The notes under the pieces are model-generated. The model was not told the DNA's origin, searched no databases, and was given only the letters and a program-made list of their open reading frames with translations. Source: an uncultured bacterium (GTDB taxonomy: Bacteria; Chloroflexota; UBA5177; JANWHV01). Taken from it: a stretch of 64,000 nucleotides of DNA. This document shows positions 21,357 through 23,675 of the stretch, piece by piece (the stretch's first letter is position 1; every line of letters begins with the position of its first letter). Position numbers and translations under genes: made by a program. Location: positions 896,001 to 960,000 of the forward strand of contig CAVSOU010000010.1 in assembly GCA_963729625.1 (NCBI GenBank). Direction: 5' to 3'.

Positions 21357-21659
21357 ATGGACGAGCAGCATGAGAAGACCCAGGACGATGTCCGTGCGGC
21401 GGTCGCGCGCATCCTAACCGCAGCGCACGGGAGGACGTCGTCGATCACGGAGTGCGGCCGCGAGAACATGCGTACGGTCAACCGGCTTTCACGCATCATC
21501 GCACTTCGGCATGTCGCAAACGACAAGACGTTCCGACACAACCTCGCCCGTTACCGGTCAGAAGCGCTCGAAGAAGATATCGTGATCGGCGCGCGCCGCG
21601 AGGGAAACGGAGTGTGGTCGCTCGTGGCCGAGCTCGTACCCCGCCAAGAACCATACTGA
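21357..21659 (+). CDS. Hypothetical protein
   Basis: 100 aa ORF with GGAG SD and protein-like composition, fills gap between serA and the dnaA-like gene. Confidence 0.55.
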   Translation: MDEQHEKTQDDVRAAVARILTAAHGRTSSITECGRENMRTVNRLSRIIALRHVANDKTFRHNLARYRSEALEEDIVIGARREGNGVWSLVAELVPRQEPY

Positions 21660-21817
21660 GCACGAGCCTTCGGGCAGCCATCGACTCCGTTCGCGCCCCA
21701 AGGACGCAGCGAGCGTCGCCGCGGATTCGTGCCTTTCCAGTCCCAAATGCCATACGAGCCCGGTTGTGGGCACCGGGCTCGTATCGGGGCGGTCGCCAGG
21801 AATATGGACCTGTGCCC

Positions 21818-22876
21818 TCATGCGAGAGCGTCAAGGAGATTCTCCCGCACCGCGGATATGGCCTGAATGATTGACTCATCGTTTGAAGCTGTCGCGCCCT
21901 CAATTCGCTTGCACCCATGCAAGACAGTCGAATGATCGCGCTCGAGCTCGCGGCCGATACGTGCGACCGTGAGACCGGCATCCTCCCGAAGCAGGAACAT
22001 GCCAATCTGGCGCGCCTGAGAAATCGTTGCTTCACGTTTCTTGCTCAACAGATCCTCTTTGCTTACGCCAAATTCAGCACAGACCGCACGAAGAATAGTC
22101 TCCACGTCACCGCGCACGGGCGCGTTCTGAGCTTGGCGTAACAGGTCGCAAAGAACACTCTTCACAATGGTGGCGCCGACTACCGTTCCACGCGGGGCAA
22201 GGTGCGCGCAGCGGCGGACCGCGGTCTCAAGCTCGTTCACGCCGCCTGCGGTCCGGTGAGCCAGAAGGTGCAGGGACTCTTCCGTGAACCAGGTCTGAGT
22301 ATATGAGGCAAATGTGCGCGCAAGGACGAGACGCGTACGTAGGCTGGGCTTACCAATACGCACGACCTGCCCCGAAAGCAGGAACGACCGAAGTCGCTCA
22401 GACAGGTCCTTAATCATCGCTGGGTCGCCCTCGCCGCTGAGCACAACCTGGCGCCCGCTGTCGCGCAGAGTCTCGATAGTGTACGCAAGATCTTCGAGGA
22501 CCGCTGCTCGGCCGGCCAACACCGGGAAGTCGTCCACAAGCAGCGCGTCCACTGAACGGTAGCGGTCACGCACTGCTTCGGCGCGGCGTTGCCGGATTCC
22601 GCTCGTGAGCTCCTGGCTTACTGTCTCCGCAGGGATGTACAGCACGTTGTGCATACCGGGTATCAGGGAAATCTGCTGTGCCATTGCCTTCAGTAGGTGG
22701 GTTTTTCCCATCCCGGGTGAGCTCTGAAGATAGAGTGGGTTGTACGTCGTTCCCGGCGACTTTGCGACATTCCAGGCGGCACGATACGCCAGTAGACTCT
22801 CCGGTCCAAACACGAACGAGGCAAAAGAGTAACGCGGCGGTTGCCCTGTATTTAAGTGCCTGTGTGTCGCAAGCAT
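21818..22876 (-). CDS. DnaA-like protein (domains III+IV only; degenerate AAA+)
   Basis: YNPLYL, GMGKTHLL, YRSVDALLVDD, LLSKKR...ARQIGMFL, RDHSTVLHG; AGGAGG SD before ATG 22876; no domain I/II. Confidence 0.88.
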   Translation of the reverse strand: MLATHRHLNTGQPPRYSFASFVFGPESLLAYRAAWNVAKSPGTTYNPLYLQSSPGMGKTHLLKAMAQQISLIPGMHNVLYIPAETVSQELTSGIRQRRAEAVRDRYRSVDALLVDDFPVLAGRAAVLEDLAYTIETLRDSGRQVVLSGEGDPAMIKDLSERLRSFLLSGQVVRIGKPSLRTRLVLARTFASYTQTWFTEESLHLLAHRTAGGVNELETAVRRCAHLAPRGTVVGATIVKSVLCDLLRQAQNAPVRGDVETILRAVCAEFGVSKEDLLSKKREATISQARQIGMFLLREDAGLTVARIGRELERDHSTVLHGCKRIEGATASNDESIIQAISAVRENLLDALA

Positions 22877-22909
22877 TCTTGCCCTCCTACCTAATTCAGA
22901 ACCTTGCAC

Positions 22910-22938
22910 ACTCTAGCAGACAAGGCCGGGGTCCACAA
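22910..22938 (-). promoter_or_regulatory. Putative promoter of dnaA-like gene
   Basis: TTGTGG-17 bp-TAGAGT with extended -10 TG; -35 overlaps a degenerate DnaA box. Confidence 0.45.
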
Positions 22939-23106
22939 CCGCGCTTCCCCTGCTTATCCACAGCCACGAGACACACTGTCTCCACAACCGTTCATGGGTA
23001 GTGAGCACGCCTTATCCGCCTCCCAGGGGTGTTTATCCGCGTGCTATCCACTGTTATCCACATGGATCCACAACTTATCCACGAAATTGTGGCAAAGTTA
23101 TCCCCC
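22929..23106. promoter_or_regulatory. Cluster of DnaA boxes (oriC-like or DnaA regulatory array)
   Basis: Perfect TTATCCACA at 22954 and 23054; 1-2 mismatch boxes at 22978, 23012, 23033, 23044, 23064, 23075, 23098 and inverted at 23088. Confidence 0.85.
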
Positions 23107-23258
23107 GGCTTGGGGAGCCTGCTCGGCCAGCGGACTGACGCACCCAACGGATCAATCGACAGATCCTTCGCCTCGCCGCACAGGAGACCGCTCTCCGGCA
23201 GCGACTGAGTCTGGCACGAAACGCGTCACGTTTGCGCTCTGGGTCGGTCCTCGATCGG

Positions 23259-23675
23259 CTAGAGTATGACGACTGCCGTGGCCGTTACGAGCGCCTGGCC
23301 TTCGCTATCGGCCACCTGCAGATTGCATTCAACGTGCGTCGACCCATCACGCATAGTGACTGACTTCACCACTCCGCCCACTCGCACACTCGAGCCAACC
23401 TTTGCAGGCACCCGGAACCTCGCGTCCAGAGTGCCGCCATGGATCCAGGCCGAGCCGAAGCGCCGCGTGAGGAGGCGCGACACATACGCCAGCAAGAGCA
23501 TGCCGTGCGCTATTGTGCCGCCGAAGGGCGTCGTAGCAGCAAACTCACTGTCGATGTGGATCGGATTGTGGTCCGAAGCTGCGTCGGCGTACGCGCGAAC
23601 ACACTCAGCCGTGATGTTCAATTCCAACTGATCCAGGACCTCGCCCTCGCTCGGGAAAGGTATCGGGCTAGCCAT
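23259..23675 (-). CDS. MaoC-family dehydratase (HadB-like catalytic subunit)
   Basis: Hydratase-2 motif YADAASDHNPIHID...GGTIAHGML. Confidence 0.88.
   Translation of the reverse strand: MASPIPFPSEGEVLDQLELNITAECVRAYADAASDHNPIHIDSEFAATTPFGGTIAHGMLLLAYVSRLLTRRFGSAWIHGGTLDARFRVPAKVGSSVRVGGVVKSVTMRDGSTHVECNLQVADSEGQALVTATAVVIL

Follow-up and report, generated by a model that had tools for sequence, protein, structure and literature searches.

A conserved short DnaA paralog consisting of domains III and IV, and its upstream DnaA-box array, in Chloroflexota

Introduction

The closest described relatives of the gene analysed here are DnaA itself (TIGR00362; structures 8BTG, 1L8Q/3R8F, 2Z4R and 1J1V), the shortened DnaA homolog Hda/HdaA (TIGR03420), the small DnaA paralog HdaB and the N-terminally truncated DnaA constructs made in the laboratory. 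The gene lies on the minus strand of a 64-kb window of DNA from a Chloroflexota genome (G000:C10:896001-960000, i.e. contig C10 of assembly G000; the window is the whole of this stretch, and gene positions are given in window coordinates) and encodes a 352-aa DnaA paralog, which we refer to as sDnaA for short DnaA. In DnaA, domains I-II are the surface for DnaB and regulators (PMC3287180; PMC5448010) with the DnaB site in domain I (PMC3287180), and ATP-DnaA oligomerises on an 11-bp head-to-tail geometry via Arg285-type contacts, Arg285 being needed for the interactions of ATP-DnaA at low-affinity sites (PMC3287180). R334A is listed in the table of DnaA mutants in the section on the Hda-clamp pathway of a further paper (PMC3905854).

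sDnaA resembles DnaA in the AAA+ fold of domain III and the helix-turn-helix of domain IV, in retaining Walker A and B, the first arginine of box VII and the DnaA-box-reading signature with its basic loop, and in having consensus boxes upstream of its gene, as is the case at many dnaA promoters. It differs from DnaA in that (i) domain I and the linker, i.e. domains I-II, are lacking, (ii) sensor II has Asn instead of Arg, sensor I has Glu, the Ile190/Val211-type position has Thr and, in G000, the arginine finger is replaced by Phe, (iii) it co-exists with two full-length DnaAs and belongs to a separate clade with a long stem, and (iv) its score is below the TIGR00362 cut-off.

Hda is likewise a shortened DnaA homolog with a related AAA+ domain, and the likeness may extend to function in that Hda is not an initiator and acts on initiation control. 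Hda lacks domain IV, whereas domain IV of sDnaA is intact, and sDnaA scores 51.1 bits against an Hda cut-off of 194.8. Hda has an N-terminal beta-clamp-binding motif of the QL[SD]LF type; inspection by eye revealed no evident motif of this type in the N-terminus of sDnaA (MLATHRHLNTGQPPRYSF).

HdaB of Alphaproteobacteria is a small domain-IV-like DnaA paralog that is kept beside DnaA and modulates initiation by titrating HdaA (PMC7049699). sDnaA shares with HdaB that it is derived from DnaA and retained alongside it; unlike the domain-IV-like HdaB, it has a whole AAA+ domain in addition to domain IV, and it is found in Chloroflexota. The architecture of sDnaA is that of laboratory constructs such as B. 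subtilis DnaA 104-446 and the domain III-IV constructs of E. coli and Aquifex, and N-terminally truncated DnaA constructs bind boxes, oligomerise and separate strands in vitro (PMC10721633; PMC5448010). These constructs were engineered with canonical motifs, whereas sDnaA is natural, evolves separately and has altered sensors and a cis array of its own. The literature also includes DnaA-like proteins of Rickettsia plasmids and a preprint on dual origins in Halomonadaceae; in the full-text literature covered, most subscription journals being outside its scope, neither a natural DnaA paralog of domains III and IV nor a Chloroflexota family of this kind is described.

Results

sDnaA consists of DnaA domains III and IV

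The sDnaA coding sequence (21818..22876, minus strand as are all features of the gene and its upstream region given below; stop codon included) was defined by the listing of open reading frames (ORFs), Pfam and NCBIfam matches, orthologs and an AlphaFold2 model. It starts with the ATG at 22876, 6 nt downstream of a Shine-Dalgarno (SD) sequence AGGAGG (22883..22888) that is kept in the orthologs, and ends with the stop codon at 21818-21820. An alternative GTG start at 22909 would add 11 residues; the orthologs and the other family members all start at the ATG. The protein has Pfam matches to Bac_DnaA (E 9.1e-38) and Bac_DnaA_C (PF08299, E 3.7e-24) and none to DnaA_N (PF11638). Its match to TIGR00362, the NCBIfam model of DnaA, covers profile positions 101-436 of 437 (264.2 bits, below the cut-off of 343.9), and given that the match begins at position 101, domains I-II are absent. 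Because the MaoC dehydratase gene upstream ends at 23259, leaving a gap of just 382 nt to the ATG, no frameshifted domain I is hidden upstream. A preliminary description of the locus had reported a 352-aa protein that has its own AGGAGG sequence and starts at domain III, without stating the strand, and the ORF, Pfam and TIGR00362 data bear this out.

For the comparison of motifs, sDnaA was aligned to the two full-length DnaAs of G000 and to solved DnaAs. The AAA+ domain III spans about aa 13-245 (22142..22840; PF00308 match and alignment to 8BTG, 2Z4R and 8BV3) and has an intact Walker A motif GMGKT (aa 55-59; 22700..22714) and an intact Walker B motif LLVDD (aa 112-116; 22529..22543). Relative to the full-length DnaAs of the same genome, (i) the sensor I region SDRHP has become GEGDP (aa 148-152; 22421..22435) with Glu at the position of the canonical Asp, (ii) box VII has changed from RLRSRF to RLRSFL (aa 161-166; 22379..22396), which places Phe165 (codon TTC at 22382-22384) at the arginine-finger position, (iii) sensor II has changed from NVRELEG to GVNELET with Asn214 (22235..22237) replacing the canonical Arg, and (iv) LEDLAYTIE is found in place of QEEFFHTFN. 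Domain IV, the DnaA-box-binding helix-turn-helix (about aa 258-352; 21821..22105; PF08299), retains SKKR...ARQIGM and RDHSTVLHG in an alignment that includes the E. coli structure 1J1V. Every motif state named in the preliminary description is found in these alignments. The AlphaFold2 model of sDnaA, built on a 48-sequence alignment, has a pLDDT of 87.3, and its best fold matches are the DnaA structures 8BTG, 1L8Q, 3R8F and 2HCB; domain III alone superimposes on 8BV3 with a TM score of 0.93 and an rmsd of 1.6 A. In total, sDnaA is a real, conserved copy of DnaA that is made of domains III and IV only.

sDnaA co-exists with two full-length DnaAs

The G000 assembly (5.4 Mb in 21 contigs, 87% complete, 5% contamination) encodes two full-length DnaAs with DnaA_N, one of 502 aa (G000:C7:296180-297688, plus strand) and one of 508 aa (G000:C11:898395-899921, minus strand), and both have the canonical RLRSRF, NVRELEG, SDRHP and QEEFFHTFN motifs. 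Because the related genome G001 likewise has two full-length dnaA copies on large contigs, it is unlikely that the second copy in G000 stems from contamination. sDnaA is, therefore, not the sole initiator of G000; to this extent the earlier proposal that it is not the initiator holds. dnaN was not found with two family models in the assembly, which is 87% complete; in G001 dnaN and dnaA share a contig and are ~450 kb apart. As had been noted from the sequence, dnaN, rpmH and gyrB are not among the 14 ORFs scanned around sDnaA (17.5-31.8 kb of the window); rpmF is present.

Several further DnaA-related genes were observed. Neither full-length dnaA of G000 adjoins dnaN or a DnaA-box cluster. At least two DnaA matches are present in 15 of 16 class-level relatives, typically one of ~450-470 aa and one of ~560-620 aa (these relatives include the unpublished genome G018, on which alone no claim depends), and phylum-level relatives mostly have one DnaA match each. 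G000 also encodes a 205-aa protein (G000:C17:168264-168881; locus L009:1411-2028) with Bac_DnaA_C as its sole Pfam match (E 1.6e-10), i.e. a domain-IV-only relative of DnaA with an architecture reminiscent of HdaB. A 293-aa protein (G000:C10:151260-152141; locus L004:1201-2082) with a Cys-rich N-terminus (CDRCGGAGY...PCGC) followed by an IstB/DnaC-type AAA+ domain is probably a DnaI/DnaC-like helicase loader, and a 289-aa counterpart of this Zn-finger protein is present in the genus relatives. In G014, another class-level genome, which gave four DnaA matches, a 376-aa DnaA without DnaA_N (G014:C1:7920-9050; locus L041:2921-4051, minus strand) has canonical SDRHP, an SSRL box VII and NVRGLEG; it lies outside the clade of short DnaAs on a long branch and may represent an independent loss of the N-terminus.

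sDnaA belongs to a family of short DnaAs under purifying selection

Orthologs of sDnaA in three relatives of the same genus are 90%, 78% and 77% identical to it, and each is exactly 352 aa long with the same start. An intact frame is present in four of the five genomes of the genus, and in the fifth, G002, which is 83% complete, no ortholog was found. In a collection of 5.8 billion proteins the sDnaA query retrieves two groups, subfamilies A and B, and no member of either has DnaA_N. Subfamily A comprises about 22 clusters of 51-100% identity, of which the full-length ones are 351-352 aa long and three are shorter fragments; subfamily B comprises about 40 clusters of 36-42% identity, mostly of 336-397 aa with a few shorter fragments. 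The family occurs in Chloroflexota genomes and metagenomes, and two members are labelled 'DnaA/Hda family protein [Chloroflexota bacterium]' by their source (NCBI) names. In a library of representatives at 50% identity the short family corresponds to two clusters, P0008 and P0029, and the next matches are other kinds of DnaA. A scan of genome contigs with the window protein found no relatives, and a scan with the subfamily B alignment gave 80 loci that are all 34-41% identical and are ordinary full-length DnaAs, so that subfamily B is unplaced in named genomes. A search of 401 phylum genomes with P0047, in which 4 candidates were scored per genome, missed sDnaA itself at the threshold used and is uninformative on distribution.

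In a maximum likelihood tree of 62 rows (quick search with SH-aLRT support only; one row from G018), subfamilies A and B group together with an SH-aLRT support of 100 on a stem of 1.0 substitutions per site. This clade is separate from the full-length DnaAs of G000, and its nearest outgroup is a 468-aa protein with DnaA_N. sDnaA lies inside this monophyletic clade, falls within its length range of 336-397 aa and lacks DnaA_N, and the loss of domains I-II together with the retention of domain IV, which the preliminary description had pointed out for the window protein, holds across the short family.

Among the genus orthologs, dN/dS (Nei-Gojobori) is 0.03-0.12 in the measurable pairs: 0.044 for the window gene versus that of G001 (0.064 for domain III and 0.009 for domain IV), 0.031 for G003 versus G004 and 0.07-0.12 for G001 versus G003 or G004, dS being saturated in the remaining pairs. 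For domain III alone dN/dS is 0.04-0.15. sDnaA is under purifying selection in both domains, and the notion that its AAA+ module is generally disabled does not agree with the selection acting on domain III itself. G000 and G001 share synteny over about 50 kb at the sDnaA locus. Its neighbours in the window are genes for housekeeping functions (serC, serA, MaoC, DD-carboxypeptidase, rpmF, fabD and accC), and on metagenome contigs that carry subfamily B genes, a DD-carboxypeptidase, two MaoC dehydratases and a fabF-type synthase are again encoded upstream of these genes. Housekeeping neighbours shared by the two subfamilies suggest vertical inheritance rather than spread by a mobile element.

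These data bear on two other explanations, namely that sDnaA is a lone duplicate of dnaA in decay, or that it is the replication protein of a mobile element such as an integrated plasmid. The score under the DnaA equivalog cut-off, an arginine-finger loss that is private to the window lineage (see below) and an insertion of 8 kb in G001, relative to G000, just upstream of the box array could be taken in this sense. However, dN/dS is 0.03-0.11 with near-saturated dS, the frame is intact in all genus genomes except the 83% complete one, the two subfamilies share synteny, and the 14 ORFs scanned around sDnaA comprise housekeeping neighbours and no integrase, par or conjugation genes. With the 77-90% identical orthologs, the tree and the wider short family, this largely refutes decay or a mobile origin, which we regard as highly improbable; to this extent the preliminary reading is supported.

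Additional features of these loci are as follows. The ~8 kb extra in G001 (G001:C19:125351-133661 versus G000:C10:919121-919359) lie between the synteny block on the MaoC side and the box array, which are adjacent in G000. A 100-aa ORF without Pfam match (21357-21659, plus strand) is convergent with sDnaA; a homolog is found directly downstream of sDnaA in 4 of 4 genus loci and was not found in subfamily B loci. G001 encodes a second short DnaA (C12:1629226-1630284; locus L040:2995-4053; P0022) of 352 aa that is 51% identical to sDnaA, has a degenerate box VII (GGLGAALL) and retains the sensor II Arg, and TGTGGACAA-type boxes lie upstream of its gene; the gene is located ~3 kb from the end of a 1.63-Mb contig, which has a full-length dnaA at 10.5 kb from its other end. 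The proteins P0121-P0134 from the representative search, of ~585-697 aa with two of 1876 and 1990 aa, have two separate short-DnaA profile matches each and may be tandem or fused DnaA AAA+ modules.

The altered motifs differ in how widely they are shared

We compared individual residues in 20 subfamily A sequences, 2 divergent A-like sequences, 41 subfamily B sequences (63 short sequences) and 59 full-length DnaAs. The arginine finger is Arg in 19 of 20 subfamily A sequences, the window protein with its Phe being the only exception, in 36/41 subfamily B sequences and in 59/59 full-length DnaAs. The TTC codon of the window gene corresponds to CGG, CGC and CGT in the three genus orthologs, all of which have Arg, i.e. 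two nucleotides have changed, and a 97.8%-identical DNA contig (run X1) is the same as the window gene at the Phe165 codon. Taken together, the loss of the arginine finger is private to the window lineage. Sensor II, on the other hand, is Asn in all 20 subfamily A sequences versus Arg in 39/41 of subfamily B and in all 59 full-length DnaAs. At the Asp position of sensor I, Glu is found in 19/20 (A) and 33/41 (B), and the full-length DnaAs have Asp (44), Ala (14) or Asn (1). The second Asp of Walker B is present in 20/20 of subfamily A and 59/59 full-length DnaAs and is Gly in 14/41 of subfamily B; similarly, the Thr of Walker A is found in 20/20 and 59/59, respectively, and is Ser in 24/41 of subfamily B. 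The Lys of Walker A is invariant in the short family (63/63).

The residues that read the DnaA box are also present in 63/63 short-family sequences, namely the Arg of the basic loop and the residues that we take to be, in E. coli DnaA numbering, Arg407, Asp433, His434, the Ser435 position and His439. The position equivalent to Ile190 of B. subtilis DnaA is Thr in 20/20 subfamily A sequences and Ala or Gly in 24/41 subfamily B sequences, and is Ile, Val or Leu in 59/59 full-length DnaAs. In B. subtilis, Ile190 is needed for binding of single-stranded DNA (ssDNA), and the I190A mutant is defective (PMC10721633).

These comparisons suggest that the short family keeps an AAA+ module competent for ATP binding and oligomerisation together with a DnaA-box reader, and that constraint on catalytic or ssDNA-handling residues has been relaxed at different positions in different branches. 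The preliminary description had called the AAA+ motifs disabled and had raised the question whether the loss of R285 and R334 is conserved. The motif changes do exist in the window protein; general disablement is an overstatement, given that the arginine finger is kept in the great majority of subfamily A, including the genus orthologs. As for conservation, the change at sensor II extends to subfamily A as a whole and not to subfamily B, and the change at the arginine finger is not conserved.

A conserved DnaA-box array precedes sDnaA

The strongest functional clue is a conserved array of DnaA boxes upstream of sDnaA, which was missed in the preliminary description. The boxes are arranged head-to-tail and read TGTGGATAA in gene direction (22954..23106). 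Relative to the ATG they start at -230, -207, -196, -186, -176, -165, -144 and -86, with a weaker one at -110, giving 8-9 boxes; those at -86 and -186 (22954-22962 and 23054-23062) match TGTGGATAA exactly, the box at -207 reads CGTGGATAA and those at -230, -196, -176, -165 and -144 have two mismatches. Five boxes follow each other head-to-tail from -207 to -165 in steps of 10-11 bp, and the steps in the array overall are 10-11 or 21-23 bp.

The positions of the boxes at -230, -207, -186, -144 and -86 vary by no more than 1 nt among the four genus orthologs, and the spacers diverge. Between -240 and -61, 43 of 54 columns in boxes are invariant versus 23 of 126 other columns (Fisher p 6e-15; the definition of boxes was based on the window sequence, and G003 is closely related to G004). 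In subfamily B, 6 of 19 metagenome loci carry a similar array of 3-4 boxes with at most one mismatch, two of these six being near-identical, upstream of proteins only about 40% identical to sDnaA. In their layout, two boxes (at about -217 and -193) precede a run of five in steps of 11 bp (-172 to -127), and one more box at -83 is followed by TGCTAnnAT and AGGAGG. This cis architecture is thus old, though not universal in the short family.

Between the array and the gene, the conserved sequence TGCTAGAGT (22910..22918) fits TGnTAnnnT, and TGCTAnnnT at -42 to -34 is conserved in the genus orthologs and in subfamily B loci. From this conservation we infer that TGCTAGAGT is a putative extended -10 promoter element.

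To place the array in its genomic context, clusters were ranked by a weighted box score in 300-bp windows. The sDnaA array is the top-scoring cluster in the 5.4-Mb assembly, with a score of 15 versus 12 and 11 at two sites on contig C8. The 800 bp upstream of each full-length dnaA of G000 contain just one box, with one mismatch, and there is none downstream. Exact boxes are rare, with 13 in G000, where they are scattered singly, and 9 in G001 versus 10 in the reversed control; the sole pair of exact boxes within 100 bp in G001 lies upstream of its sDnaA gene. Over the 64-kb window as a whole, boxes with at most one mismatch are not enriched (6 found versus 5.5 expected). The signal of the array, thus, lies in clustering and conserved positions and not in the number of boxes.

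Other clusters in G000 are located at C8:206880-207000 (five boxes with at most one mismatch and an AT-richer stretch, just downstream of rimM-trmD-like genes), at C8:438135-438435 (a weaker cluster of 9 boxes with at most two mismatches) and at C5:65945-65967 (a palindromic pair of exact boxes 14 nt apart); none of them adjoins a dnaA gene. The genes in G000:C5:64113-70478 have a GC3 of 0.83-0.90 versus 0.64-0.77 in their neighbours and the rest of the assembly, and this segment may be chimeric or a contaminant.

The array could in principle be a replication origin, either of the chromosome or a second one, with sDnaA as the initiator or as an obligatory orisome subunit together with full-length DnaA and the DnaI/DnaC-like loader. 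Its rank in the assembly and the near absence of boxes at the full-length dnaA genes would fit this idea, as would the loader gene at G000:C10:151260-152141 and a shallow local minimum of cumulative GC skew near C10:900-920 kb. Moreover, DnaA without domains I-II separates strands in vitro (PMC10721633), and head-to-tail boxes at 11-bp steps resemble the DnaA-oligomerisation regions of known origins (such regions are described in PMC3287180). Of the sequence features of an origin, phased boxes in the same orientation are present, and an adjacent unwinding element, DnaA-trios and a switch in GC skew are not: between -450 and 0 there is no AT-rich tract, the maximum AT content of 0.60-0.65 (per 20 nt) being inside the array; no run of three or more DnaA-trio-like triplets ((WAR)x3) occurs on either strand; at larger scale the sign of GC skew does not change across the locus in C10, and there is no switch at the orthologous locus on G001:C19; and gene-strand bias does not switch at the locus. 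In addition, the Ile190-equivalent residue is not hydrophobic-aliphatic in most short-family members, and a putative promoter and an SD sequence lie between array and gene, as in a regulatory region. GC skew and gene-strand bias are weak throughout the lineage and reveal no clear origin anywhere, so these negatives are moderate rather than decisive. Because an AT-rich unwinding element, DnaA-trios and a GC-skew switch are missing, we consider an origin at the array quite unlikely.

Discussion

sDnaA and its upstream array are solid findings, and from their sequences we infer the DNA binding, oligomerisation, direction of regulation and effect on replication discussed here. On a narrow balance of probability we favor that sDnaA is an autoregulated or DnaA-responsive, helicase-blind DnaA-box binder that acts as a regulator rather than as an initiator. 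In this model, (i) sDnaA would bind TTATCCACA-type boxes, as expected because domain IV keeps the base-reading residues of DnaA and consensus boxes stand upstream, (ii) it would assemble head-to-tail on the phased array just upstream of its own promoter, its AAA+ module being under selection and most family members having both the first box VII Arg and the arginine finger, (iii) its expression would be autoregulated or set by the occupancy of the array by full-length DnaA, and (iv) elsewhere, the origin included, it would function as a helicase-blind competitor or co-assembling subunit at DnaA boxes. Helicase-blindness would follow from the lack of domains I-II, the surface for DnaB and regulators. 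In E. coli the R334A variant is defective in ATP hydrolysis, and loss of the sensor II Arg in subfamily A may give an ATP-locked form that escapes hydrolysis-based inactivation. The window protein, lacking the arginine finger, could accept the finger of a neighbour and could not donate one and, thus, might act as a one-sided chain terminator. The net effect of sDnaA on initiation could be negative, as a decoy or cap, or positive.

Alternatively, sDnaA may be a transcription factor of the ordinary kind, with a regulon that is marked by DnaA boxes but has no part in replication control, the array only providing tight autoregulation. DnaA itself acts as a transcription factor (PMC8203912), the DNA-reading residues and the promoter-proximal array are conserved, and exact boxes are scattered singly over G000. 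On the other hand, the AAA+ domain, including the arginine finger in most members, is under purifying selection, which argues for ATP-dependent oligomerisation over simple helix-turn-helix binding, and as the box is the same as that of the initiator, cross-talk with DnaA sites would be hard to avoid. We therefore regard a regulon unrelated to replication as unlikely.

Several observations weigh against the model of a helicase-blind regulator acting through its own array. First, most residues for ssDNA capture other than the Ile190 equivalent are either retained or changed conservatively (Q for N187, I/L for I193, R for R202, R for K222 and D/E for E228); because most of these residues persist and DnaA without domains I-II separates strands in vitro (PMC10721633; PMC5448010), a role in unwinding is conceivable. 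Second, no array was found upstream of 11 of the 19 subfamily B loci, two further loci having mis-picked starts. Third, a strict sigma-70 scan of 21600-23300 found no promoter, and no terminator was found there either. Fourth, two RNA contigs of 153 and 238 nt that are 95-99% identical overlie only the 3' end of the gene (21798-22066), the rest of the gene being uncovered; as these small-share contigs come from two metatranscriptome runs of one study and may reflect DNA carry-over, they are too weak for a claim that sDnaA is expressed. Finally, chain termination is limited to the window lineage with its R-to-F change.

A more elaborate version of the regulator model would be that sDnaA and its array constitute a self-contained module for initiation control, in which an ATP-locked, helicase-blind protein, its level set by box occupancy at its own promoter, co-polymerises with or caps the filaments of full-length DnaA at the origin and, in G000, terminates chains. 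We offer this as a tentative and, in all its parts together, rather doubtful possibility. If true, it would be the third independent recycling of pieces of DnaA to control DnaA, after Hda and HdaB, and the module would work in a lineage that keeps two full-length initiators.

What is understood of how replication initiation is controlled comes mainly from Proteobacteria and Firmicutes, and to our knowledge almost nothing is known about it in Chloroflexota. In the lineage analysed here, two full-length DnaAs occur together with one or two short DnaAs and a domain-IV-only protein, and dnaN is unlinked from dnaA. A DnaA that naturally lacks domain I and is accompanied by a conserved array of the oligomerisation type is suited to asking what the AAA+ filament does without helicase recruitment, and sDnaA is equally suited to asking whether initiator paralogs regulate one another. 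The family also supplies natural variants for such questions, with the sensor II Arg lost in subfamily A, the second Walker B Asp lost in part of subfamily B and the arginine finger lost in the window lineage.

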